A DNA stretch of 64,000 nt. Source: Desulfobacterales bacterium (GTDB taxonomy: Bacteria > Desulfobacterota > Desulfobacteria > Desulfobacterales > UBA5616). The stretch is taken from NCBI GenBank assembly GCA_046483495.1, contig JAWODC010000026.1, positions 10,838 through 74,837 of the forward strand. The letters run 5' to 3'. The position numbers were made by a program, and so were the translations under genes. Below the pieces are notes generated by a model. That model ran no database searches, was not told the DNA's origin, and saw nothing but the letters and a program-made list of their open reading frames with translations. Position 1 is the stretch's first letter, and every line of letters starts with the position of its first letter. Positions 10,491 to 63,326 of this stretch are shown here, one piece after another.

Positions 10491-11193
10491 TCAATTCGCG
10501 GATAGTCGTATTCCCGAAAACAAGATACATTTCCGTGACGATTTTCGATCGGAGATACACTATTTTGTTGTCTGACCATCCCGTTTCCAGATCAAGGCGA
10601 ATGCTCGCATCACCGAGATCTATTCGGGACTCGTACCAAATCAGGATTCCTTCGATTGTATTCACCGGTGATTCAAAATGCGCTCGACCCAAGCCGTCGA
10701 TGACAGAAGAAAAACCCCCCGAATGGATTTTTTCCCCGGAATCCAGGTTGTAAACCTCCGCCCGTCCGGAAATCCGGATGTATCGGCCGGGTTGGATATA
10801 AGGAGGTATCAACTCGATAGACGGGGCGAATCGAATCGATCGGTTTCGTTCGAGCAGGTCTATGCGTGCGACATGGACGGCGCCTTCCGAGGTGCGGTAT
10901 AGGTCCATGCGATAAAGCCCCTGAAATTCCATTCTCCATTTGTTCGGCGAATCGTTCGAACGCTTCAAAGCCATTTGAATTTTTTTGCCGGCGCCTTTTC
11001 CGGAACGAATCAGGAAGACGGCCGACTTGGCATCGAGCGATACCAGATCACTGGATGCCAGGCTTTCCGGTTTATCCGCGGCATTTTGTTTGTCGGGTGT
11101 CTTTGCCGTTGCAGCTGTTGGTTCACCAATGCCTACGGCCGTCATAATAATTATCACCACCAGAAGAAGGCTTTCGCCATGACGTTTTTTCAT
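10477..11193 (-). CDS. Exported hypothetical protein
   Basis: SD GGAGG, signal-peptide-like N-terminus, beta-rich composition. Confidence 0.65.
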   Translation of the reverse strand: MKKRHGESLLLVVIIIMTAVGIGEPTAATAKTPDKQNAADKPESLASSDLVSLDAKSAVFLIRSGKGAGKKIQMALKRSNDSPNKWRMEFQGLYRMDLYRTSEGAVHVARIDLLERNRSIRFAPSIELIPPYIQPGRYIRISGRAEVYNLDSGEKIHSGGFSSVIDGLGRAHFESPVNTIEGILIWYESRIDLGDASIRLDLETGWSDNKIVYLRSKIVTEMYLVFGNTTIRELIIAQ

Positions 11194-50404: not shown

Positions 50405-53400
50405 ATGAACAGAAAAATGGTAACCATCGACGGCAATGAAGCCGCAGCATATGTCGCCCATAGAACCAACGAAGTCATCGCCATATATCCGATTACGCCC
50501 TCTTCCCCGATGGGGGAATGGGCCGACGAGTGGTCGGCCAGGGGATATAAGAATATCTGGGGCACCTTGCCGCATGTGTATGAAATGCAGAGCGAGGCCG
50601 GAGCGGCCGGGGCTCTTCACGGTGCGCTGCAGGCCGGGGCGCTTGCCACGACGTTTACCGCGTCCCAAGGGCTTTTATTGATGATCCCCAACATGTTCAA
50701 GATAGCCGGAGAGCTCACTGCGACCGTTTTTCATGTTACAGCCAGGACAATCGCCACCCACGGCCTCTCCATATTCGGAGACCACAGTGATGTGATGGCC
50801 GCCCGTTCGACCGGATGCGCCATGCTGGCCGCCGATTCCGTGCAGGAGGCTATGGATTTTGCGTTGATCGCCCAGTCCGCCACGCTGCGGTCCCGCGTGC
50901 CGTTCATTCATTTTTTCGACGGCTTCCGGACGTCCCACGAAGTTGCAAAGGTGGAGCAGCTCACGTTGGACGATATGAGAGCCATGATCGATGACAACCT
51001 CGTTGCGGCGCACCGGGAAAGGGCACTGACGCCGGATCGGCCCGTCATTCGCGGAACGGCGATAAACCCGGACGTGTTTTTTCAGGGCAGGGAGGCATCG
51101 AATCCATTTTATCAGGCATGTCCGGAAATCGTAGAGAAGACGATGGACCGCTTTTATGATCTCGTGGGAAGGCGGTATGCACTTTATCAATATGTCGGGG
51201 CTCCGGATGCCGATCGGGTCCTGGTGATCATGGGGTCGGCCGCGGAGACCGTCATGGAAACCGTCGGAGTTTTAAACGAACAGGGGGAAAAGGTGGGATT
51301 GGTCAAGGTGCGGCTGTATCGCCCTTTTTCCGGGAAGCACTTTTTAGAGGCGCTGCCGAAAACGGTAAAAGCGATTGCCTGCCTCGACCGCACCAAAGAG
51401 CCCGGTTCGGCGGGAGAGCCGCTTTACCAGGATGTGCTTACCATGATCAGTGAAGGTTTCTCCGATGGATCCGTCGGGTTCGCGGCATTTCCCCGAGTGG
51501 TCGGGGGGCGCTACGGACTTTCCTCCAAGGAATTCACACCCGCAATGGTCAAAGGTGTTTTTGACGAATTGAAGCAATCAAAACCCAAAAATCATTTCAC
51601 TGTCGGCATCGACGATGATATCACCCATACGAGCATCGACTACGATCCCTTCTTTACCGCAGAAAAAGGCGAGGTGATTCGGGCCATGTTCTACGGCCTT
51701 GGCGCGGACGGGACGGTCGGTGCGAACAAGAACTCCATTAAAATCATCGGCGAGGGAACCCCCAACTTCGCCCAGGGATATTTTGTCTATGACTCGAAAA
51801 AATCGGGTTCGCAAACGGTTTCCCATCTTCGCTTCGGCCCGACGCCGATTCATGCCGAATACCTTGTACACAAAGCGAACTTCATCGCTTGCCATCAGCC
51901 GTTTTTTCTCGAAAAACCCGGTATTTTGGCCGGTGCGGCAGAAGGCGCCGTCTTTCTGCTCAATTCTCCTATCGGCCCGGAAAACATCTGGGACTACGTA
52001 CCGGCGGAAAGCCAACGGCACCTGATCGACAAAAAGATGGCCTTCTATGTTATCGATGCGTATAAAGTCGCCGGCGAGGCCGGGCTGGGGGGAAGGATCA
52101 ACACGGTGATGCAAACGTGCTTTTTCGCGATTTCAGGTGTTCTGCCGAAGGAAGCGGCCATCGAGGCGATCAAAGACGCCATTCGAAAGACTTACGGAAA
52201 ACGGGGCGAACACATTGTTCGGATTAATTTCGAGGCCGTCGACAAGACGCTTGCCAACCTTCATCGGGTCACCATCCCGGAAACGGTCCGGGAAGGGGGC
52301 GAAAGCCGCCCGGTGGTGCCGGAGGAGGCGCCCGAATTCGTCAGAAAGGTGACCGCGGTGATGATGGAAGGAAAAGGGGACGAACTGCCGGTAAGCGCCA
52401 TGCCGGTGGACGGTACGTTTCCGACCGGCACGACCCGATGGGAAAAACGGAACGTTGCGCTGGAAATTCCCATCTGGGACAAGGAGGTGTGCATCCAGTG
52501 CGGCAAATGCTCTTTGTATTGCCCCCATGCGACCATTCGAATGAAGGCTTACCATGAAGACCATCTCCGGAATGCGCCGGAATCATTTCAATGGACCCCT
52601 GCCCGGGGCCGGGATTTTCCCGAGGGCACGCTCTTTACGGTCCAGGTTGCGCCGGAAGACTGCACCGGGTGCGGCGTATGCGTCAATGTATGCCCCGCCA
52701 AAAACAAGAAGGAACTGGGCAAAAAGGCCATTAACATGCACGCCAAAATCCCGGTTTTGGAGCGGGAGAAGGCCAATTATGAACATTTTCTCCGGATTCC
52801 CGATTATGATCGTGATGCGCTTAAGATCCACACGGTTAAAGGATCCCAATTGTTGAAACCCCTCTTTGAATACTCCGGCGCCTGTGCCGGGTGCGGCGAA
52901 ACGCCGTATATTAAGCTGTTGACGCAGCTTCTCGGCGATCGGCTTTTGATTTCGAATGCAACGGGCTGTTCATCCATATACGGCGGGAATCTCCCGACTA
53001 CGCCGTATACGACGAATGCCGAAGGGCGGGGGCCGGCATGGTCGAATTCGTTGTTCGAAGATTGCGCGGAATTCGGATTGGGCATGCGGATGGCCGTCGA
53101 CAAAAACACCGAATTCGCCCGTGAACTGTTAAAGGAAAGTGCCGGACGTCTGGGTGAATCCCGAGTCGACAGTATTCTAAAAGCGGACCAGGAAACCGAA
53201 AGCGGCATTGCTGCTCAACGGCGGCGCATCAACGAACTCAAACAAATTCTCGCCGCCGATTCGGACCCGAAATCCGAACTGCTTCTCACACTCTCGGATT
53301 ACCTGGTGAAGAAAAGCGTCTGGTGCGTCGGGGGGGACGGATGGGCATACGACATCGGGTTCGGCGGACTGGACCATGTCATCTCTTCGGGGAAAAACAT

Positions 53401-53983
53401 CAATCTTCTCGTTCTGGACACCGAGGTTTATTCGAACACAGGCGGCCAAATGTCCAAGGCCACCCCGCGGGCCGCAGTGGCCAAATTCGCCGCCGGCGGA
53501 AAGCATACCCCTAAAAAAGATCTCGGCATGATGATGATGACTTACCGAAACGTTTATGTAGCACAGGTGGCGATCGGCGCCGATGACGCCCATACGGTCC
53601 GCACCTTCGTCGAGGCGGCGGCATACGACGGACCATCACTGATCATTGCTTACAGTCACTGCATTGCCCACGGCGCCCATATCCCACAGGCATTCACTCA
53701 TCAAAAGGCGGCGGCGCAAAGCGGCTACTGGGTGCTTTTCCGCTTCAACCCGGACCGGATAAAGGAAGGCCGAAACCCGCTTCAACTCGACAGCAAGGAG
53801 CCTTCCATCTCGGTTATGGATTTCGCCTATCAAGAAACCCGCTACAAGATGCTTTCATTGAGCCGACCTGAAGAAGCTCGAAAACTGATCGGGCTTTTAG
53901 ACGAAGACGCAAAAAACAGGTATCGAATTCTTCAGCAGATGGCTGCCATGGAATTCGACGGGACCACCCGGGCGGGTATGTGA
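50405..53983 (+). CDS. nifJ: Pyruvate:ferredoxin (flavodoxin) oxidoreductase, single-chain type
   Basis: YPITPSS, GLGADGTVGANK, two 4Fe-4S motifs, SGACAGCGE, GGDGWAYDIG. Confidence 0.96.
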   Translation: MNRKMVTIDGNEAAAYVAHRTNEVIAIYPITPSSPMGEWADEWSARGYKNIWGTLPHVYEMQSEAGAAGALHGALQAGALATTFTASQGLLLMIPNMFKIAGELTATVFHVTARTIATHGLSIFGDHSDVMAARSTGCAMLAADSVQEAMDFALIAQSATLRSRVPFIHFFDGFRTSHEVAKVEQLTLDDMRAMIDDNLVAAHRERALTPDRPVIRGTAINPDVFFQGREASNPFYQACPEIVEKTMDRFYDLVGRRYALYQYVGAPDADRVLVIMGSAAETVMETVGVLNEQGEKVGLVKVRLYRPFSGKHFLEALPKTVKAIACLDRTKEPGSAGEPLYQDVLTMISEGFSDGSVGFAAFPRVVGGRYGLSSKEFTPAMVKGVFDELKQSKPKNHFTVGIDDDITHTSIDYDPFFTAEKGEVIRAMFYGLGADGTVGANKNSIKIIGEGTPNFAQGYFVYDSKKSGSQTVSHLRFGPTPIHAEYLVHKANFIACHQPFFLEKPGILAGAAEGAVFLLNSPIGPENIWDYVPAESQRHLIDKKMAFYVIDAYKVAGEAGLGGRINTVMQTCFFAISGVLPKEAAIEAIKDAIRKTYGKRGEHIVRINFEAVDKTLANLHRVTIPETVREGGESRPVVPEEAPEFVRKVTAVMMEGKGDELPVSAMPVDGTFPTGTTRWEKRNVALEIPIWDKEVCIQCGKCSLYCPHATIRMKAYHEDHLRNAPESFQWTPARGRDFPEGTLFTVQVAPEDCTGCGVCVNVCPAKNKKELGKKAINMHAKIPVLEREKANYEHFLRIPDYDRDALKIHTVKGSQLLKPLFEYSGACAGCGETPYIKLLTQLLGDRLLISNATGCSSIYGGNLPTTPYTTNAEGRGPAWSNSLFEDCAEFGLGMRMAVDKNTEFARELLKESAGRLGESRVDSILKADQETESGIAAQRRRINELKQILAADSDPKSELLLTLSDYLVKKSVWCVGGDGWAYDIGFGGLDHVISSGKNINLLVLDTEVYSNTGGQMSKATPRAAVAKFAAGGKHTPKKDLGMMMMTYRNVYVAQVAIGADDAHTVRTFVEAAAYDGPSLIIAYSHCIAHGAHIPQAFTHQKAAAQSGYWVLFRFNPDRIKEGRNPLQLDSKEPSISVMDFAYQETRYKMLSLSRPEEARKLIGLLDEDAKNRYRILQQMAAMEFDGTTRAGM

Positions 53984-54023
53984 GGTGACGGGCGTTCTCA
54001 ACCGCTAACCCAAGGAGAACCAA

Positions 54024-55034
54024 ATGGATCTGACCACCGAGTACATGGGATTAAAACTGAAGTGCCCTTTGGCGGCCTCGGCATCGCCGCTTTCCAGGGA
54101 CGTGGATAACATCAAACGATTGGAAGATGCAGGGGCCTCCGCCATTGTACTGTACTCGCTTTTTGAAGAACAGATTATCCACGAGCAGAAGGAACTGGAT
54201 TATTACCTGTCACGGGGGGCTGAACACTTTGCCGAAGCATTGACCTACTATCCGAATATGGAGGATTACAACCTCGAGCCCGATATGTATTTAGAGCACA
54301 TTCGAAAGGCAAAAGAAGCTGTTGACATCCCCATTATCGGAAGCCTGAACGGTGTTTCCGACTCCGGCTGGTCCGCATATGCATCGCATATCGAACAAGC
54401 CGGGGCGGATGCCGTGGAATTGAATATCTATTATGTTGCCGCCGATGATTCTCTCTCTGCAGAGGCGGTGGAATCGCTGTATCTGGGCAACCTTGCGACG
54501 GTCAAAGAGGCGGTCGGCATTCCTGTCGCCGTGAAGGTCGGGCCTTTTTTCAGCGCCATGGCACGTATGGCGAAGCGGCTGGACAGTGCAGGTGCGGATG
54601 CGTTGGTTCTTTTCAACCGATTCTATCAGCCGGATATCAACCTCGAGACGCTTGAAACCGAACCGAGTATTTTACTGAGCAGGGAAGGCGAGTACCGGCT
54701 TCCTTTGCGATGGATCGCCGTACTCTACGGCCGTATCGGCGCCGATCTGGCGGCGAGTTCAGGCATCCACAACGGGTATGACGCCGCAAAAATGATTATG
54801 GCCGGCGCCGATGTGTTGATGCTGTGCTCCACGCTGCTGAAGAACGGGATTGATTGGCTGACGCGGATAAAAGAGCAGCTGCGGGAATGGGCCCATCACC
54901 AGGAGTATGCATCGATCGGTGAAATGAGAGGGAGCATGAGCCACAGGAACACGCCGAACCCGTCGGCCTTCGAACGCGCAAATTACATGCGCGCACTGAC
55001 CGAATTTTCTGTGGCGAGTGCGGCTAAATGGTAG
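54024..55034 (+). CDS. Dihydroorotate-dehydrogenase-like FMN protein
   Basis: YMGLKLKCPL, SLFEEQI, ELNIY, PVAVK, FNRFYQPD; catalytic SCP motif absent. Confidence 0.85.
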   Translation: MDLTTEYMGLKLKCPLAASASPLSRDVDNIKRLEDAGASAIVLYSLFEEQIIHEQKELDYYLSRGAEHFAEALTYYPNMEDYNLEPDMYLEHIRKAKEAVDIPIIGSLNGVSDSGWSAYASHIEQAGADAVELNIYYVAADDSLSAEAVESLYLGNLATVKEAVGIPVAVKVGPFFSAMARMAKRLDSAGADALVLFNRFYQPDINLETLETEPSILLSREGEYRLPLRWIAVLYGRIGADLAASSGIHNGYDAAKMIMAGADVLMLCSTLLKNGIDWLTRIKEQLREWAHHQEYASIGEMRGSMSHRNTPNPSAFERANYMRALTEFSVASAAKW

Positions 55035-55999: not shown

Positions 56000-56911
56000 T
56001 CAGGTCGAAAAGATAATCAGTATGAAAACACCGGCCATGTAGAAGATAGAGAAAAAAAACAGTTTCCGAGCGGAATGCCGGTCTTTTCGATACCACAGTG
56101 CAACCAGATGACGAAAAAAATTGAGCCCCAAGAGAGTTGTCCCGATGAGGAAGAAAAGCCCCAGATCCGCTTGTACACCCAAGAAGGCGGTGGCCGGAAT
56201 CAGTCCAAGCGTGTACGCTGTGATATGCACCCGTGTCGCCGCCTCTCCGGAGATCACCGGCAGCATGGGAATCCCGGCATGGGCGTATTCCTCTTTGATG
56301 GAAAGTGCCAGCGACCAGAAGTGGGGAGGTGTCCATAAAAAAATGACAAGCGCCATGAGAAAAGGAATGATGCCCAATTCACCTGCTCCTGCGGACCATC
56401 CGATCAACGGAGCAGCGGCACCGGAAGCGCCGCCGAATACGATGTTCATGGCAGTTCTGCGCTTGAGCCATATCGTATAGACGATGACATATATGAATAT
56501 CGCTCCGATTCCCAGCAGCACCGTTAACCCGTTTCCTGCACAATAAAGCAGGGCCGTCGCCGATCCGGAAAAAATAAAACCCACGTAAACGGCGGTTTTT
56601 GGGTTGATTTTGCCGGCCGGAATCGGCCGCCTGTTTCGGGTGCGCGGCATGAGGCGGTCGATGTCCCGGTCCAGATACTGGTTAAAGGCATTCGCGGCGG
56701 AGGCGGCTAAAATAATGCCGGCAAGAATTGCAGAAAACCTGCCGGGGTCGACGGCAAGCGATCCTTCGAGTGCCATGGCGCTTGCTCCGGTGACAGCGAC
56801 GAGAAGTACGATTCGGGGCTTGGCCAGCAGCAGGCAACTGTATACATGTGCCCTCAACCGCACAAGCAAACTTGCCGCAAACGTAAATCCTGAATGGATA
56901 TTCGTTTTCAT
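56000..56911 (-). CDS. cyoE: Heme o synthase (protoheme IX farnesyltransferase)
   Basis: KPRI, N..LDRDID.LM.RT..RP, LKRRT..NI..GG, WTPPHFW. Confidence 0.94.
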   Translation of the reverse strand: MKTNIHSGFTFAASLLVRLRAHVYSCLLLAKPRIVLLVAVTGASAMALEGSLAVDPGRFSAILAGIILAASAANAFNQYLDRDIDRLMPRTRNRRPIPAGKINPKTAVYVGFIFSGSATALLYCAGNGLTVLLGIGAIFIYVIVYTIWLKRRTAMNIVFGGASGAAAPLIGWSAGAGELGIIPFLMALVIFLWTPPHFWSLALSIKEEYAHAGIPMLPVISGEAATRVHITAYTLGLIPATAFLGVQADLGLFFLIGTTLLGLNFFRHLVALWYRKDRHSARKLFFFSIFYMAGVFILIIFST

Positions 56912-56969: not shown

Positions 56970-57362
56970 TCAATTCTCGTACAAATAGGCTGCTATATTC
57001 ATCGCCTCCCGCGTCGAAACGCCGAGGTCGGGCATGGCCGTTTCGGGGGAGAATTTCAGGGGATTGCGCACCCAGGCCACCATGTTTCCGGGCGTGTTCG
57101 GAAGGACGCCCCCGATGTAGATCTGAACGCCGATATCGTTCAGCTTCGGTCCGACCCTGCCGGTTGCTTTGCGGATCCCGGGAATCACGTGGCAGGCCGT
57201 ACATCCGTAACCAATCATCGCCTGCCGGCCGAGACTCGGCAAACCGTCGCGAACGGACCAGGGTTGTCTCTCCGGCACCGGGGTGCGGTGCCACACCCAA
57301 TATACGGCGGCTGCCGCTAGGAAAATGAAACCAACCAGCAGCCAGATTGTCCGTTTCAGCAT
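56970..57362 (-). CDS. Membrane-anchored monoheme cytochrome c
   Basis: CTACH, distal AMP. Confidence 0.9.
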   Translation of the reverse strand: MLKRTIWLLVGFIFLAAAAVYWVWHRTPVPERQPWSVRDGLPSLGRQAMIGYGCTACHVIPGIRKATGRVGPKLNDIGVQIYIGGVLPNTPGNMVAWVRNPLKFSPETAMPDLGVSTREAMNIAAYLYEN

Positions 57363-57373
57363 ATCAGGCTCCC

Positions 57374-58816
57374 TTATTCACGGGGAAACGTCTGTGCAAC
57401 CAGTACGAATTCAACAACCTTTTCCAGGTCCTCTTCTGTAATGCGATCAATATAGCTCGGCATCGGGACATTCTTCGGCGGTGCAAGAACGAAATTGTAA
57501 AGCCACGACCGGGAAAGGCGCTTTTCAGTAGCCGCCAGGTCAGGTCCGACACGCCGTCCATGCGACGATACCGCGTGGCAGCTGTTGCACCCGTATACAG
57601 CGAAAAGATGCCGCCCTTTTTCGCTCATATCACTCAAAACGATGCCTTCGGGCACCGTTGGGGGCGTACTGTCCGGCCAGCCGGTCCATGGGGATTCGAT
57701 ACGCAGATCCGTGAACCACAACAACACAAACAGAAGTGAAAGGACGAAGAAGACCCAGAAGGGCCTTTTCCGTGCTCCCCGGTTCGGACTGCGGTCCAGA
57801 AACGGCAGAAGCATCATTCCCACGAACAGCAGCAATGGAAAAACCACGTAAACCACCGGTGCCGCTCGGGGCGGAAGCTGCGCGATTACGGCGCTGTACC
57901 ACCAGAACCACCATTCTTCTCGAGGCATCGACCGCGCAACCAGGTTCCCCTCGGGATACAGTTCCTGCGGGCCGACCACAAATGCCGGCAGAAAGGCGAT
58001 CGAGAAAATCACAAGGGCGGCTGCGCCCGACATCAGAACGGTTCGTGGATAGAACCACTCGCCCTCTGTCGGTGATTCACAAGCGGCCTTGTAAATCGCC
58101 TTTTGCTCGGCCGCGGTTTTGACCGGCTGTTTTTTCTCCGCACGGGATGTGATGCCGTGCAAAATCACCAGGTACAGATGAAGCCCCACCAGGCCGATCA
58201 GAAAGAGCGGCACGATCCAGACGTGAACTGAAAAAAAGCGGGTAAGGGTGACCGAACCAAGGTGCTGCCCACCCTGGACCACGTAAACGAGGGCCTCGCC
58301 GATCACGGGAACCCGGTACAACATGTTGAGTGAAACGCGCACGGCATATACGCCGCGTTCATCCCAGCGAAGGACATAACCGGTGTAGGACATGGCCAAA
58401 ACCAAAAAAAACTGGAAAACGCCGACTATCCATGTGCCCTCTCGAGGGGCTTTATAGCCGCCCAGCAGCAGGTGCCGAAAAACATGCAGCACCAGCATGA
58501 CGACCATCACGCCGGCTGTCCAATAATGGATTCCCCGGACCAGCCGGCCCAGGGACACTCCCCGTGTAATAAGCCACACACTGTCATAGGCGTGGTCGGC
58601 GGAATTGGTGTAATAAAGGAGCATGGTCATTCCCGTGATGACCTGGATGGCCAGAAGCGTCATCAGGGCCGCGCCGTCGCCGTAATACCATGGTGTCCGG
58701 GGAACGCGACGGGCAAGGACATGCCTATGGAAGGGAAAGAACCCCAAACGATGAGCCGCGATCCGCTTCAGTGAATCGCCGTTGCCTTTCAGCCGGCATA
58801 ATGCTCTTATACGCAT
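57374..58816 (-). CDS. Cytochrome b (b6+subunit IV-like) fused to C-terminal cytochrome c
   Basis: Four heme His, GYKAPRE.TW, TGYVLRWD, LLPFLDR, CNSCH...MP. Confidence 0.9.
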   Translation of the reverse strand: MRIRALCRLKGNGDSLKRIAAHRLGFFPFHRHVLARRVPRTPWYYGDGAALMTLLAIQVITGMTMLLYYTNSADHAYDSVWLITRGVSLGRLVRGIHYWTAGVMVVMLVLHVFRHLLLGGYKAPREGTWIVGVFQFFLVLAMSYTGYVLRWDERGVYAVRVSLNMLYRVPVIGEALVYVVQGGQHLGSVTLTRFFSVHVWIVPLFLIGLVGLHLYLVILHGITSRAEKKQPVKTAAEQKAIYKAACESPTEGEWFYPRTVLMSGAAALVIFSIAFLPAFVVGPQELYPEGNLVARSMPREEWWFWWYSAVIAQLPPRAAPVVYVVFPLLLFVGMMLLPFLDRSPNRGARKRPFWVFFVLSLLFVLLWFTDLRIESPWTGWPDSTPPTVPEGIVLSDMSEKGRHLFAVYGCNSCHAVSSHGRRVGPDLAATEKRLSRSWLYNFVLAPPKNVPMPSYIDRITEEDLEKVVEFVLVAQTFPRE

Positions 58817-58825
58817 AATTTTACC

Positions 58826-59383
58826 TCAGGCCATCGGCGGAACGGAATGGAGATCGATCAGGATCTCGCCGTTTTTTATGCGATTGGCATAGCGGTACAT
58901 GGGGCGATTCGGAGGGCCGGCCATCCGTTCGCCGTTTTTGTCGAAAATTCCGCCATGGCATGGACAAAAGAAGCATTGACTTCCCGGGTCGAATGTGAGG
59001 GGACAGCCGAGATCCGTGCAGCTTCTGGAATAAACGATCACTTCTTTTTCTGTGGATCGCCAGGCATACACAGCCATATCCCGCAGCGCATCTCCCCAAT
59101 GTTCTTCAGGCAGGCGCACGATTACCTTGCGCATGACGCCTACAGGGAAGGTTTCGATTCCGCCGATCGACCGCCATTTCGGCCTTTTCCCACGTTGCCG
59201 CCATAAGGGCGCCAGGCCGGCGATCAGGGAAGGTATGCCGACCATCGCGGCAACAGCCAACCCAATGCCACGGACTCCCCATACCATCAGGGTCCTTCGT
59301 TTTCCGTCGATTTCGTTTACGGCCGCCTTTTCGGAAGGACCGTTTTCGCTGATTGCGTTTTCCGAGTTCATCTGATTCAACAC
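58826..59383 (-). CDS. Rieske-type 2Fe-2S subunit with atypical box I
   Basis: Tat-like KRRTLM + TM, CTDLGC, CPCHGG.F, GPP.RP. Confidence 0.88.
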   Translation of the reverse strand: MLNQMNSENAISENGPSEKAAVNEIDGKRRTLMVWGVRGIGLAVAAMVGIPSLIAGLAPLWRQRGKRPKWRSIGGIETFPVGVMRKVIVRLPEEHWGDALRDMAVYAWRSTEKEVIVYSRSCTDLGCPLTFDPGSQCFFCPCHGGIFDKNGERMAGPPNRPMYRYANRIKNGEILIDLHSVPPMA

Positions 59384-59772
59384 CCCCCCAGATAAGCAAA
59401 GACAGGCATGCTTTCCACAATGATGATCAGCGAAAAAACCCCGCTGATCGGCCAGCCGAAGCTCGATAGGTAAATGCCGCCCGCGTCATAGAGGTTTTCA
59501 TGGGCCGCTGCCCCGTCTTTACGTGCATCCGCATATCCGATGATGGTCGCTGCAACGGCAGGGGTCAGCGATAGAATGCCCGCCCCGATTAGAAGCCATG
59601 CCACCGCGCTGATGCCGGCGATGCTGCGATCGTCGAATCCGCTGACGCAGCCGAACTCGCCGATCGCGTAGATGGCCAGGAGATGAAATGTCCAGGCAAG
59701 GGCGCCCCCGAGCAAGGCGAACCATCGGCGAAGTATCAGTCCCCGAGACGGTGGCGTATGTGCAGCAGTCAT
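59377..59772 (-). CDS. Three-helix membrane protein, putative oxidase accessory subunit
   Basis: SD GGAGG, three hydrophobic segments, embedded in the operon. Confidence 0.7.
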   Translation of the reverse strand: MTAAHTPPSRGLILRRWFALLGGALAWTFHLLAIYAIGEFGCVSGFDDRSIAGISAVAWLLIGAGILSLTPAVAATIIGYADARKDGAAAHENLYDAGGIYLSSFGWPISGVFSLIIIVESMPVFAYLGGC

Positions 59773-59784
59773 GAGCCTCCTTTT

Positions 59785-62292
59785 TTACAAAATGTAAGGC
59801 GACAGGTACGTGGTCAAATAAGAAAGAATTCCCGCCGCTACTGCGAAAAACAGGAAAATTTCAGTGTTCTGGAGCCATAAGGCCAATCGGGGCGCACCGA
59901 GGGGTTCCCCGGACGCCAGCATGCGGGCAAAAGTACCGGCCGTTATACAGGTTCCGGTCAGGGCCGTCAGCAGGACAAATCCGTTTATCGTAAAAAATAT
60001 GGATGCATAGGCATTGTCCGAATGGGAAAAGGGCGTCGATGCCAGGCTCCACCATTGGCCGGCCGCAAAACACAGTCCTGAAACGATAATGCCCGCCATG
60101 ACGTAAATGATCGGCCTGCGACGTTTTTGCCGCCGCATACGGAAAGAGATCACCTGGAGAACCCCTGCCGCAGCCAGTGCCGCGTATGCCGCCGAGGAAA
60201 TTTTAAGGTCCGGCAGCGGAAGTCCGAACTGCGGCCACTGGGCGGAATACAGCCGGAGGTAAAAATAGCTGTAGATCAAGACCGCAAGAACCGTGAACAG
60301 GATGGCCGCCATTCCCAGCATTGCCCACCATCCCACGGACCGGGAGCCCGAAGACAACAGCGGCAGTTTTAGATGTTCGGTGAGATAATCGGCTTCCCCG
60401 GGATCGATCTCCGGTTCCCGTGTCAGCCAGTATCCGATGAGAATGACGGCGAAAACAGAGGCGATGACAGCCGGCATATAGCTGTCGCCGAGAATCGAAA
60501 CGGCTGCCGTCAAAAAAGCGACAGCCGTGAGAAACGGCAGCATCGTCGGGCCGGGAAGATGCTGAACAGCCTGCGGCAGCCCGTTGGTGATATCGGTGAC
60601 GAGGTTCGCCCGCCATTTGGCGGGACGGCTGTCGAGCTTCTCCGCCGTGCGGACCAGCTCTTCTTGCAGGGTGTCGTCCGGCGCCGGCTGCCACAAGGGA
60701 TATCGGTCGCGCACCACGGGGGGGCGTATGAATCCGGAGGGGTGCGGCGGCGAGGTGATGGACCACTCGATTGTGCCGCCCTGCCAGGGATTGTCATCCG
60801 CACGCCTGCCCCTTCCTGCGCTCCAGAGAAGGCCCAACAGCGCGACGGCAAATCCGATGCCAAGCAGGTAGGCGCCGAGGGTGGAAACAAAATTCAGCGT
60901 ACCGACGTCGAGTTCTTCGGGAAAGGTGAAAACACGCCGCCGCATACCCAAAAGTCCGATAATGTACATCGGGATAAACGTTACATTGAAACCGATAAAA
61001 ATCAGCCCGAAACCGATTTTGCCGGGTATTTCTTGGGCGATTCTGCCGGTGAACTTCGGCAGCCAGTAGTAGAGGCCGGCCAAAAACGGAAAAACCGCAC
61101 CGCCGATCAACACATGGTGAAAATGGGCCACTACGAAATGTGTGTCGTGAACCTGCCAATCGAAGGGCATCGTCGCCACCATGACCCCGGTCATGCCTCC
61201 GTTGATAAAAACGAAAAAGAACCCTAAAATAAACAGCATGGGGACGGTATAGCGGGGGCGGCTTCCCCATAGCGTGGCGATCCAGGCGAAGACCTGGGTT
61301 CCGGAGGCAAGAGCGATCATGAAACTGGCCGCCGTAAAAAACAGCATGGGCAGGTCGGGCAGACCGCTAGTGAACATGTGATGGGTCCAAAGACCGAAGC
61401 TGACGAAAGCGGTGACCAGAATGGCCAGTATCACCAGTTTGTATGCCACCATGCGACGGCGCGCCAGGACGGGAATAATCGCGGAAAGGACGCCGGTCGC
61501 CGGCAGAAAAATGATGTACACTTCCGGATGGCCGAAAAACCAGAACAGATGCTGCCAGAGAAGAGAATTTCCCCCCAACCGGGGGTCGAAAAAGCGGAAC
61601 CCGAAGGTTCTTTCCATCTCAAGAAGAAGAGAGGCGATCAAAAGGGGTGTAAATGCGAAAATAATCATTACGCCGGTGGCGACATAAGCCCAGATAAACA
61701 GCGGCATGTTCTGAATGGCCATCCCCGGAGCGCGGAACTTGAAAATCGTGATCGTGATCTCGACAGCCGCCCCGATGCCGGCAATTTCGATGAGGCTTAG
61801 CCCCAACAGCCAGAAATCCAGCCCTTTTCCCGAAAAGCGCGAACCCGAAAGCGGCGTATAGGCGGTCCATCCCGCATCCGGTACGGTTCCGAAAAGCAGG
61901 CTCGAATACATTACCAGTCCGCCGAAAAGAAACAGCCAGAATCCGAAATTCGTGAGGCGGGGATAAGCGACGTCACGGGACCCGATCAGAAGCGGAATCA
62001 TGTATAAACCAAGACCCTCGATGAACGGTACGGCAAACAGGTAAAGCATTGTCGATCCGTGCATCGTAAATACACGGTTGTAGACGCCGGGAGTGAGCAT
62101 GTGGTTTTCCGGTACGGCCAACTGCGTACGCATGACCAGTGCGAGCACCACGCCGACAAGGAAAAACGCCAGGGAGGCCGCCATGTAACGGATGCCGAGC
62201 GGCCGGTTGTTGACGTCGGAAATCCAGCCGATAAGACCTTTCGGCGATTCCCAGGTCCGGGTAAACAACAGGTGACGTTCAGAATGGTTCAT
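59785..62292 (-). CDS. ctaD: A-family heme-copper oxidase subunit I fused to a subunit III-like domain
   Basis: FTMHG, FGHPEVY, WTHHM, VAHFH, GMRRR; C-terminal SYFYLR..WP and NAYASIF; ATG overlaps the upstream TGA (ATGA). Confidence 0.92.
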   Translation of the reverse strand: MNHSERHLLFTRTWESPKGLIGWISDVNNRPLGIRYMAASLAFFLVGVVLALVMRTQLAVPENHMLTPGVYNRVFTMHGSTMLYLFAVPFIEGLGLYMIPLLIGSRDVAYPRLTNFGFWLFLFGGLVMYSSLLFGTVPDAGWTAYTPLSGSRFSGKGLDFWLLGLSLIEIAGIGAAVEITITIFKFRAPGMAIQNMPLFIWAYVATGVMIIFAFTPLLIASLLLEMERTFGFRFFDPRLGGNSLLWQHLFWFFGHPEVYIIFLPATGVLSAIIPVLARRRMVAYKLVILAILVTAFVSFGLWTHHMFTSGLPDLPMLFFTAASFMIALASGTQVFAWIATLWGSRPRYTVPMLFILGFFFVFINGGMTGVMVATMPFDWQVHDTHFVVAHFHHVLIGGAVFPFLAGLYYWLPKFTGRIAQEIPGKIGFGLIFIGFNVTFIPMYIIGLLGMRRRVFTFPEELDVGTLNFVSTLGAYLLGIGFAVALLGLLWSAGRGRRADDNPWQGGTIEWSITSPPHPSGFIRPPVVRDRYPLWQPAPDDTLQEELVRTAEKLDSRPAKWRANLVTDITNGLPQAVQHLPGPTMLPFLTAVAFLTAAVSILGDSYMPAVIASVFAVILIGYWLTREPEIDPGEADYLTEHLKLPLLSSGSRSVGWWAMLGMAAILFTVLAVLIYSYFYLRLYSAQWPQFGLPLPDLKISSAAYAALAAAGVLQVISFRMRRQKRRRPIIYVMAGIIVSGLCFAAGQWWSLASTPFSHSDNAYASIFFTINGFVLLTALTGTCITAGTFARMLASGEPLGAPRLALWLQNTEIFLFFAVAAGILSYLTTYLSPYIL

Positions 62293-63326
62293 TTCAGGCT
62301 CCACAGGTATGCCGTAAGCGCATGGAGATCCTCGGGCGGCAAATACGATTTCGGCATCAGGTTCTCCGGTTTGATATCCTGTGGATTGGCGATCCAGCCG
62401 GCCAGTGATCCCGGTGTATTGACAATGGTGCCGGCGCCGAGCGTTTTTCGTGATCCCACGTGGGTCAGGTCGGGACCGGTGCTGCTTTCGGATAAGCCCC
62501 TGATTGCATGGCATGCCATACATCCCTCCTGAATGAATGCGCGTTCTCCCCGCACCAGACGCGGGTCCGCCGGGGCAGCCGGCGGACGGCGGCGGTCATC
62601 GACCCATCTTTCGAAATCCTCCGGATCATGGGCGATCAGACGAAAAGCCATCAGGGCATGCGGTCCGGCGCAGTATTCGGTGCAGGTGCCGCGATAATTC
62701 CCGGCTTCATCGGCCTGGAGTTTGATCGATGTCGGATGATCCGGCAGCATGTCCCGCTTTCCGCCGAGCCGCGGAACCCAGAAACTGTGAACCACAGCGT
62801 CGGAAACGAGTTCGAACGTCGTCAGGACACCTACCGGAATATGGATCTCGTTGGCATCGACGATGTTATACTGGGGATAATGCACCTCGAACCACCAGTG
62901 GTGACTGGTGACGTTTACCTGGAGTCCCGGCGATCCTTTGCCGAGTATTATCGTGTCGTGCACCGTGAGGGCGAGCATGACCACGAGCACAACGGTAGGT
63001 ATGGCGATTCCGGCAATAAAAACGAACCGCGGGCCCGGAAGACGGCCGTTTTTTCGGTGAATTACAAGTGCGGCAGCGAGCAGCCCCAGTGCAATAATAT
63101 AGATGGAGCCGTATACAACCAGCATTTCCCACCAGAGATCGGCGATCCGTGATGCTGCCGGACCTGCCGGATAGAGCATGGATTCCGATGCCTCGGCGGG
63201 CCTGGTCCTGATCATTCGATTAAAAAGCGCCGTTAAAAGAAGCAGTGATACAGCAATCCAGCCCGGCCGGCGCTTCGGTTTTTTCATCGATCGATCTGCT
63301 CCTGTAGACGGGGCATTCCTTTGCAT
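62289..63326 (-). CDS. coxB: Cytochrome c oxidase subunit II with CuA and fused cytochrome c
   Basis: VHSFWVP, CTEYCAGPHALM, CMACH. Confidence 0.93.
   Translation of the reverse strand: MQRNAPSTGADRSMKKPKRRPGWIAVSLLLLTALFNRMIRTRPAEASESMLYPAGPAASRIADLWWEMLVVYGSIYIIALGLLAAALVIHRKNGRLPGPRFVFIAGIAIPTVVLVVMLALTVHDTIILGKGSPGLQVNVTSHHWWFEVHYPQYNIVDANEIHIPVGVLTTFELVSDAVVHSFWVPRLGGKRDMLPDHPTSIKLQADEAGNYRGTCTEYCAGPHALMAFRLIAHDPEDFERWVDDRRRPPAAPADPRLVRGERAFIQEGCMACHAIRGLSESSTGPDLTHVGSRKTLGAGTIVNTPGSLAGWIANPQDIKPENLMPKSYLPPEDLHALTAYLWSLK

Follow-up and report, generated by a model that had tools for sequence, protein, structure and literature searches.

A Rieske protein lineage with aspartate in place of a box I histidine, encoded with a rebuilt cytochrome b and an altered heme-copper oxidase

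Background

Two histidine ligands define Rieske centres and underlie the models of proton-coupled quinol oxidation. A gene in contig JAWODC010000026.1 of a Desulfobacterales bacterium (assembly GCA_046483495.1) encodes a Rieske-type protein in which one of these histidines is replaced by aspartate, which raises the question whether the substitution is real, whether the aspartate takes over as a ligand of the cluster, and what such a centre would do within the respiratory operon that surrounds it. Coordinates given below refer to the window, i.e. the whole stretch of 64,000 nucleotides that was analysed (positions 10,838 to 74,837 of the forward strand of the contig).

Results

The Rieske protein gene occupies positions 58826..59383 of the minus strand, where it forms an open reading frame of 185 amino acids; the database protein P0001 is a version of 181 amino acids that starts at 59371. 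Pfam (Rieske family PF00355, 33.3 bits against a cut-off of 20.3), an AlphaFold model based on a 56-sequence alignment (mean pLDDT 91.8, with a long N-terminal helix at residues 12-60 and a beta head) and Foldseek, whose top matches to that model are Rieske proteins and domains, all point to the Rieske fold. The layout is also that of the family, with a twin-arginine (Tat-type) motif (59294..59299, minus strand), a single membrane helix as anchor and the Rieske head, and the cytochrome b gene adjoins. No other Rieske-type match was found in the host genome. Box II (CPCH, 58955-58966) together with GGIF, the G-F low-potential signature, spans 58943..58966 on the same strand, and its Cys-x-x-His as well as both cysteines of the disulfide type are intact, as the initial annotation had read them. 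The box II histidine is the residue that we take to correspond to bovine H161. Its presence bears out the earlier statement that the quinol-contacting histidine is retained, in agreement with the passages on H161 in PMC7908018.

The departure lies in box I. In place of the Cys-x-His ligand motif of the family, as defined in the accessible text of PMC11138216, box I reads CTDLGC (59003..59020, minus strand), where the codon GAT at 59012-59014 (read from 59014 to 59012) encodes D120 of P0001. An ungapped alignment to solved Rieske proteins sets this D opposite H, so that the replacement reported in the initial annotation, which named no strand, holds and belongs to the minus strand. Judged from its sequence, the gene product would resemble a Rieske subunit in working, yet it departs from the defining 2Cys-2His motif.

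Close homologues do not retain the histidine: among the 120 listed, of 244 found, every one carries aspartate in box I. Among 120 genomic loci compared, 47 showed an Asp box I, and GAC, the synonymous codon that had been proposed as a check, is as common there as GAT (24 and 23 loci, respectively, with the locus of the window itself and a small number of near-duplicates counted in). When the unique proteins of the clade were pooled (n=246), the box I site held Asp in 242 and His in four, with no Asn, no Glu and nothing else. Since the seed words of the homologue searches contained the aspartate, we also ran a HMMER profile search, which uses no word index. Its best 150 matches comprised 18 in-clade representatives, 17 with Asp and one with His, while the remaining 132 consisted of 131 His proteins and one fragment without the box; a search seeded with a His member of the clade yielded three more His members. 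We consider it confirmed at the level of sequence that the aspartate is real, above chance and no point error, the base itself being supported by the assembly and by the homologues.

Trees built after masking of the ligand column show the clade as a single branch (SH-aLRT 99; 100/99 in a second tree). All 241 Asp proteins compared share the four cysteines, the box II histidine and the subsequent Gly-Gly and Phe, an invariance of the cysteines and the histidine that is due in part to the pattern by which the proteins were selected. The G-F signature occurs in 236 of 236 Asp proteins examined, the Gly-Pro loop is conserved along with the rest of the cluster site and the twin-arginine signal, and of the 212 full-length proteins 187 have the arginine pair itself and 21 another basic pair. 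Against ten loci the Rieske gene gave uncorrected pN/pS values of 0.20-0.29.

The four His members (P0122 and P0271-P0273) carry changes of their own close to the cluster, at sites that are otherwise conserved. They probably pair with the cytochromes b P0436 and P0509, a pairing judged only by the equal sizes of the contigs (3442 and 9526). P0436 keeps the quinol-site motif EEWW described below, hence a strict coupling between Asp and EEWW is not upheld, and the rebuilt quinol site would not require the aspartate. Either that site was rebuilt first, or the histidine came back later. Both best trees nest the His group inside the Asp clade and so favour a reversion, whereas its basal placement is not rejected by the AU test (p 0.22 and p 0.32), leaving the reversion unproven.

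The hosts of the Asp-type system include Desulfobacterales, Desulfobulbaceae, Planctomycetota, Verrucomicrobiota and Krumholzibacteriia, and among named species Natronomicrosphaera hydrolytica (Rieske P0295, cytochrome b P0507) and Phragmitibacter flavus (cytochrome b P0431). Vertical inheritance within the host's group was rejected: neither 60 relatives nor 400 genomes of the host's phylum gave an Asp-type match, and the best matches there (3e-36 and 6e-39) were of the His type. In another phylum, that of G456, the system was found in three of 400 further genomes. This rare and patchy distribution suggests horizontal spread; the plasmids searched yielded no close match. In relatives, the His-type Rieske domains of the loci L011, L012, L102, L104, L105, L107 and L115 lie in long open frames of about 420-530 amino acids, suggesting fusion to another domain.

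The operon reads, along the minus strand, oxidase subunit II (62289..63326, which has the CuA ligands and carries a cytochrome c as a fusion), the C-terminally extended subunit I of the oxidase (59785..62292, where 62292 is the likely start in a frame that stays open to 62523), a membrane protein of 131 amino acids (59377..59772), the Rieske protein, cytochrome b with a cytochrome c fused to its C-terminus (57374..58816), a small membrane-anchored c-type cytochrome with CxxCH and Met (56970..57362) and a heme O synthase of the CtaB/CyoE type (56000..56911, above the cut-off of TIGR01473). Of 50 clade loci, the 44 whose flank is long enough all have cytochrome b after the Rieske gene, and 34 of 37 contain oxidase genes; the gene order varies. 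The 131-amino-acid protein is conserved in most such operons and has two near-invariant cysteines and a conserved histidine; it matched no Pfam family and only unnamed look-alikes, and it is likely a small oxidase subunit. In databases the Asp-type proteins carry the label of subunits of an ordinary menaquinol-cytochrome c reductase.

The host genome (96.7% complete) contains dsrA and a single COX1, and no bd oxidase was found in it. Neither heme A synthase nor SCO was found there, while the operon has its heme O synthase; it is therefore likely that the oxidase works with heme o/b and receives its copper from a chaperone other than SCO. Immediately past the downstream end of the oxidase operon, the other strand carries an open frame of 1192 amino acids within 50405-55034 (+), followed by a dihydroorotate dehydrogenase-like gene; by eye we presume the 1192-amino-acid product to be pyruvate:ferredoxin oxidoreductase-like, which would probably make it an O2-sensitive enzyme.

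Cytochrome b is changed at its quinol-oxidising (Qo) site. We compared 40 cytochromes b encoded beside Asp Rieske genes with 33 beside His Rieske genes, after dropping exact duplicates and three loci with mislabelled boxes. The four histidines that bind the b hemes are kept in the window, in 40 of 40 Asp-type proteins and in a further 120 of 120. The P[ED]WY motif is rebuilt as EEWW in the window (57908-57919, minus strand; 57893..57919 including Ser308), and it therefore lacks the proline with which the motif of Q-cycle cytochromes b, be it PEWY, PDWY, PVWY or similar, begins. Its first residue is Glu in 40/40 Asp-type proteins against Pro in 33/33 of the His type, the acidic second residue is kept, and 38 of the 40 have Trp at the fourth site; among the further 120 proteins the motif is EEWW in 115, EEWY in four and GEWY in one. 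Eight residues past the Qo proline, position 308 is Ser throughout the Asp type (40/40 and 120/120), whereas 32 of the 33 His-type proteins have Phe or Tyr there. By its spacing, this position is the equivalent of yeast Tyr279, a residue at the Rieske interface.

The cd1 helix (58322..58372, minus strand), the modelled docking surface of box I, is altered too: position 154 is Arg in 40/40, and the conserved cd1 tryptophan is kept in none, Tyr or His standing at position 157. Towards the Qi side, the heme ci motif has lost its cysteine and gives way to an Asp-Gly pair, which is invariant and lies next to the Qi-side heme. The Asp of the former motif, residue 47 of the protein encoded at 57374-58816 (-), is itself invariant (40/40 and 120/120).

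A model of the Rieske-cytochrome b complex scored 0.72 against 0.00 for the best control, with 91% contact agreement and a partner pLDDT of at least 86; this is a mark attained by 116 of 157 solved pairs and by two of 215 mismatched pairs. The modelled pose, in which Rieske residues 120-124 and 137-140 rest on the cd1 helix and the ef loop, is the normal docking pose. Because Rieske protein and cytochrome b are a textbook pair, similarity to solved complexes may account for this result; the model, which gives no metal-ligand distances, would thus speak for likeness rather than for binding.

The oxidase has the six histidine metal ligands, the HPEVY motif with its Tyr and the CuA ligands of the A1 type, and alignment to solved oxidases shows that the entry Asp of the D channel and Glu286 are kept. 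The Lys and Thr of the K channel and the Asn gate of the D channel are lost. In the window, the K-channel Lys is Gln (61294-61296), the gating Asn is Thr (61951-61953), the equivalent of Asn207 is Glu (61759-61761) and an additional Glu stands in helix 2 (62017-62019). These changes are general: all 25 CoxI proteins beside Asp Rieske genes (two duplicate loci and fragments dropped; Rhodobacter sphaeroides numbering from a table in PMC12901375) have Lys362 replaced by Gln, Thr359 by Ser and Asn207 by Glu, together with the extra Glu in helix 2, and their Asn139 is Thr in 19 and Ser in six, versus Lys, Thr, Asn and Asn at the four numbered sites in 7/7 CoxI proteins neighbouring His-type Rieske genes. 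N139T and N139S are decoupling mutants, in which O2 is reduced without pumping, and K362M blocks the reduction of heme a3 in model oxidases (both in the accessible parts of PMC12901375). The decoupling-type residues predict poor pumping, so that the oxidase probably reduces O2 but pumps protons poorly. What counts against this reading is the bypass of Lys362 that it implies, in that the Lys mutant blocks heme a3 reduction, yet the Lys is Gln here.

Two further observations concern the oxidase subunits. CoxI has two additional Glu within the membrane, and the stretch examined of the matching CoxII helix contains no Glu. The residue after the second heme-ligand His of CoxI is His, not Tyr, in the window and in most relatives from the Desulfobacterota group.

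CoxI proteins beside Asp Rieske genes form one branch. Next to it branch Gln-type CoxI proteins from three proteobacterial plasmids (L156 4887-7442, L157 4899-7496 and L158 4926-7448), which have no Rieske gene nearby and belong to Peteryoungia desertarenae, Paraburkholderia largidicola and Sinorhizobium meliloti (pSymB). Aligned to the separate subunit III gene of L156, the C-terminal extension of CoxI is probably a fused subunit III. Since Gln-type CoxI exists without a Rieske gene nearby and the His-type sisters have canonical A1 oxidases, the Asp lineage appears to have been paired with a pre-existing oxidase type. The changes in the Rieske protein, the Qo site and the oxidase all fall on one clade, and so count as one event and give no statistical proof of co-evolution.

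Discussion

Does the aspartate bind the cluster? The histidine ligands of Rieske centres bind iron through N-delta, and O-delta of aspartate lies equally many bonds from the backbone. That His is the sole alternative at the site, with neither Asn nor Glu among the 246 proteins, fits a metal ligand, whereas a surface aspartate would be expected to swap to Asn or Glu. The aspartate thus likely binds iron and would make the centre a 2Cys-1His-1Asp [2Fe-2S] cluster; ligation by two cysteines, a histidine and a carboxylate is known for the [2Fe-2S] cluster of RsrR (passages of PMC11138216). As to substitute ligands, no other histidine or cysteine of the Rieske protein is invariant among the 241 Asp proteins. 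Cys133 was rejected as a candidate, being present in 139 of the 241, and so was residue 164 of cytochrome b, which touches Asp120 in the complex model but is variable, Asn in the window though His in 90 of 120.

The G-F signature predicts a Rieske potential of 120-160 mV (passages of PMC3509893 and PMC4122944). As aspartate is anionic, a potential below this range is to be expected, and the one-His [2Fe-2S] cluster of mitoNEET lies at about 0 mV according to the accessible text of PMC9737848. By our own estimate, the Asp-type cluster has a potential of perhaps -100 to +50 mV.

The reading that we favour, by a modest measure, is that an Asp-ligated Rieske centre of lowered potential still passes electrons from menaquinol to O2 through the cytochrome b-c and oxidase of its operon. 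The Rieske protein would be exported by the Tat pathway with its cluster in place, the O-delta of the aspartate would replace the N-delta of histidine on the exposed iron, and this anionic ligand would bring the potential below that of G-F-type Rieske proteins. Docked at the rebuilt Qo site, the head would take the first menaquinol electron and proton by way of the box II histidine, and the second electron would pass to the b hemes; from there on, the fused c hemes and CuA would deliver electrons to an oxidase that reduces O2 and pumps poorly. In a sulfate reducer, the role of the module would likely be the removal of O2 or microaerobic respiration of low yield. A bolder version, offered tentatively and with more doubt than belief, is that of a dedicated III-IV supercomplex rebuilt in three places, namely the Rieske centre with its Asp ligand, the quinol site with its unusual motif and the oxidase, which lacks the Lys and would be decoupled. 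Such a complex would oxidise menaquinol with O2 at low energy yield and serve as a transferable oxygen shield.

The first alternative accepts the bond between aspartate and iron and supposes that the Q-cycle has been given up, both quinol electrons leaving through the Rieske protein in a fully uncoupled oxygen sink. The Glu in place of the Qo proline and the Ser in place of the Tyr279 equivalent, each present in all 40 cytochromes b beside Asp Rieske genes, would suit such a sink, as would the decoupling-type residues of the oxidase, and by our arithmetic a cluster at about 0 mV would leave little drive for bifurcation from menaquinol, placed at -80 mV in passages of PMC4122944. However, the ligands of the b hemes, the acidic second Qo residue and the Qi-side Asp-Gly are all kept, and a low-potential chain should decay if unused; we therefore think this alternative unlikely.

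The second alternative does without an Asp-iron bond: the cluster would be labile, with water or another exogenous ligand, or the site would hold just one metal or stay empty, and the role of the subunit would be mainly structural. Its precedent is the Sulfolobus ARF protein, in which changing the box I histidine to cysteine prevented cluster assembly (accessible text of PMC2946596), with the caveat that the side chain of cysteine is shorter than that of aspartate, and the altered Qo residues that face the cluster would agree with it. A structural role sits poorly with the conservation of the rest of the cluster site, of the Gly-Pro loop and of the twin-arginine signal, with histidine as the only alternative at the site and with a head modelled in its normal docking pose, and we judge it improbable.

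Very improbable, in our view, is a system tuned to another donor or direction, such as a methylated menaquinol of lower potential or reverse flow, with the oxidase as a mere neighbour. A cluster of lower potential should suit such a quinol, but oxidase genes occur at the great majority of the loci, across phyla, and their CoxI proteins form one branch. Finally, the caveat of the initial annotation, that a sequencing error or point mutation is possible as CAT is one base away from GAT, is refuted by the homologues, nearly all of which carry Asp with both codons in use; they equally refute a mutation that is private to this genome and inactivates the protein.

If the bolder version is true, the lineage would contain the first Rieske centre in nature that oxidises quinol with a carboxylate among its ligands. 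It separates the roles of the two Rieske histidines and would show how far the potential of the cluster can fall before electron bifurcation fails, with the His-bearing subgroup inside the clade as a built-in natural control, or revertant. The Rieske head, of about 120 residues, lends itself to expression, and the system occurs in named species, which makes the proposal directly testable; the hosts of the plasmid-borne Gln-type CoxI are in turn tractable for tests of a Lys-less oxidase.

No description of an Asp-type Rieske protein was found in the literature searched, whose scope stopped short of Dibrova 2013, ten Brink 2013 and most subscription journals, and the exact motif together with 'Rieske' gave no match. 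The accessible portions of PMC5600118, PMC4013037, PMC7908018, PMC6431628 and bioRxiv 10.1101/2020.03.01.968255 make no mention of the variant. Two of the three supplements to PMC4122944 lack the motifs; supplement 1, outside the search, may bear on the Qo motif.

The closest known relatives, as far as the accessible text of Kao and Hunte 2014 (PMC4122944) goes, are Rieske proteins of low potential with the G-F signature, from the PDWY-cyt c and PEWY-cyt c clades of Rieske/cytochrome b complexes; examples are the His-type operons of Fulvitalea axinellae (pFA4) and Deinococcus gobiensis (P1). They likewise have a membrane-anchored Rieske protein with the disulfide Cys pair, a cytochrome b-c fusion and an operon with a heme-copper oxidase. 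They differ in the box I histidine, in P[DE]WY, in Phe or Tyr at the Tyr279 site and in a canonical A1 oxidase with Lys, and the Asp-type proteins share about 30-35% identity with these His-type relatives. Among solved domains, the best matches in sequence and fold are those of Chlorobaculum tepidum (8HN2), Thermus thermophilus (1NYK and 3FOU) and Kuenenia kuste4569 (9RK4); all four alignments place His opposite the Asp of the window. Natural [2Fe-2S] clusters with one histidine are found in RsrR (two Cys, His and Glu, hence with a carboxylate) and in mitoNEET (three Cys and His), as partly available sources describe them, but these are non-respiratory proteins of unrelated folds and without quinol chemistry. 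Linked complex III and IV genes and fused c hemes are also known from the obligate III-IV supercomplexes of the actinobacterial bcc-aa3 type, again from sources available in part. Finally, the family A oxidases without a K channel, in the accessible part of bioRxiv 10.1101/2020.03.01.968255, have hydrophobic replacements of the Lys in iron oxidisers, where the present oxidase has Gln and, unlike them, two new Glu residues and Thr or Ser in place of Asn139.
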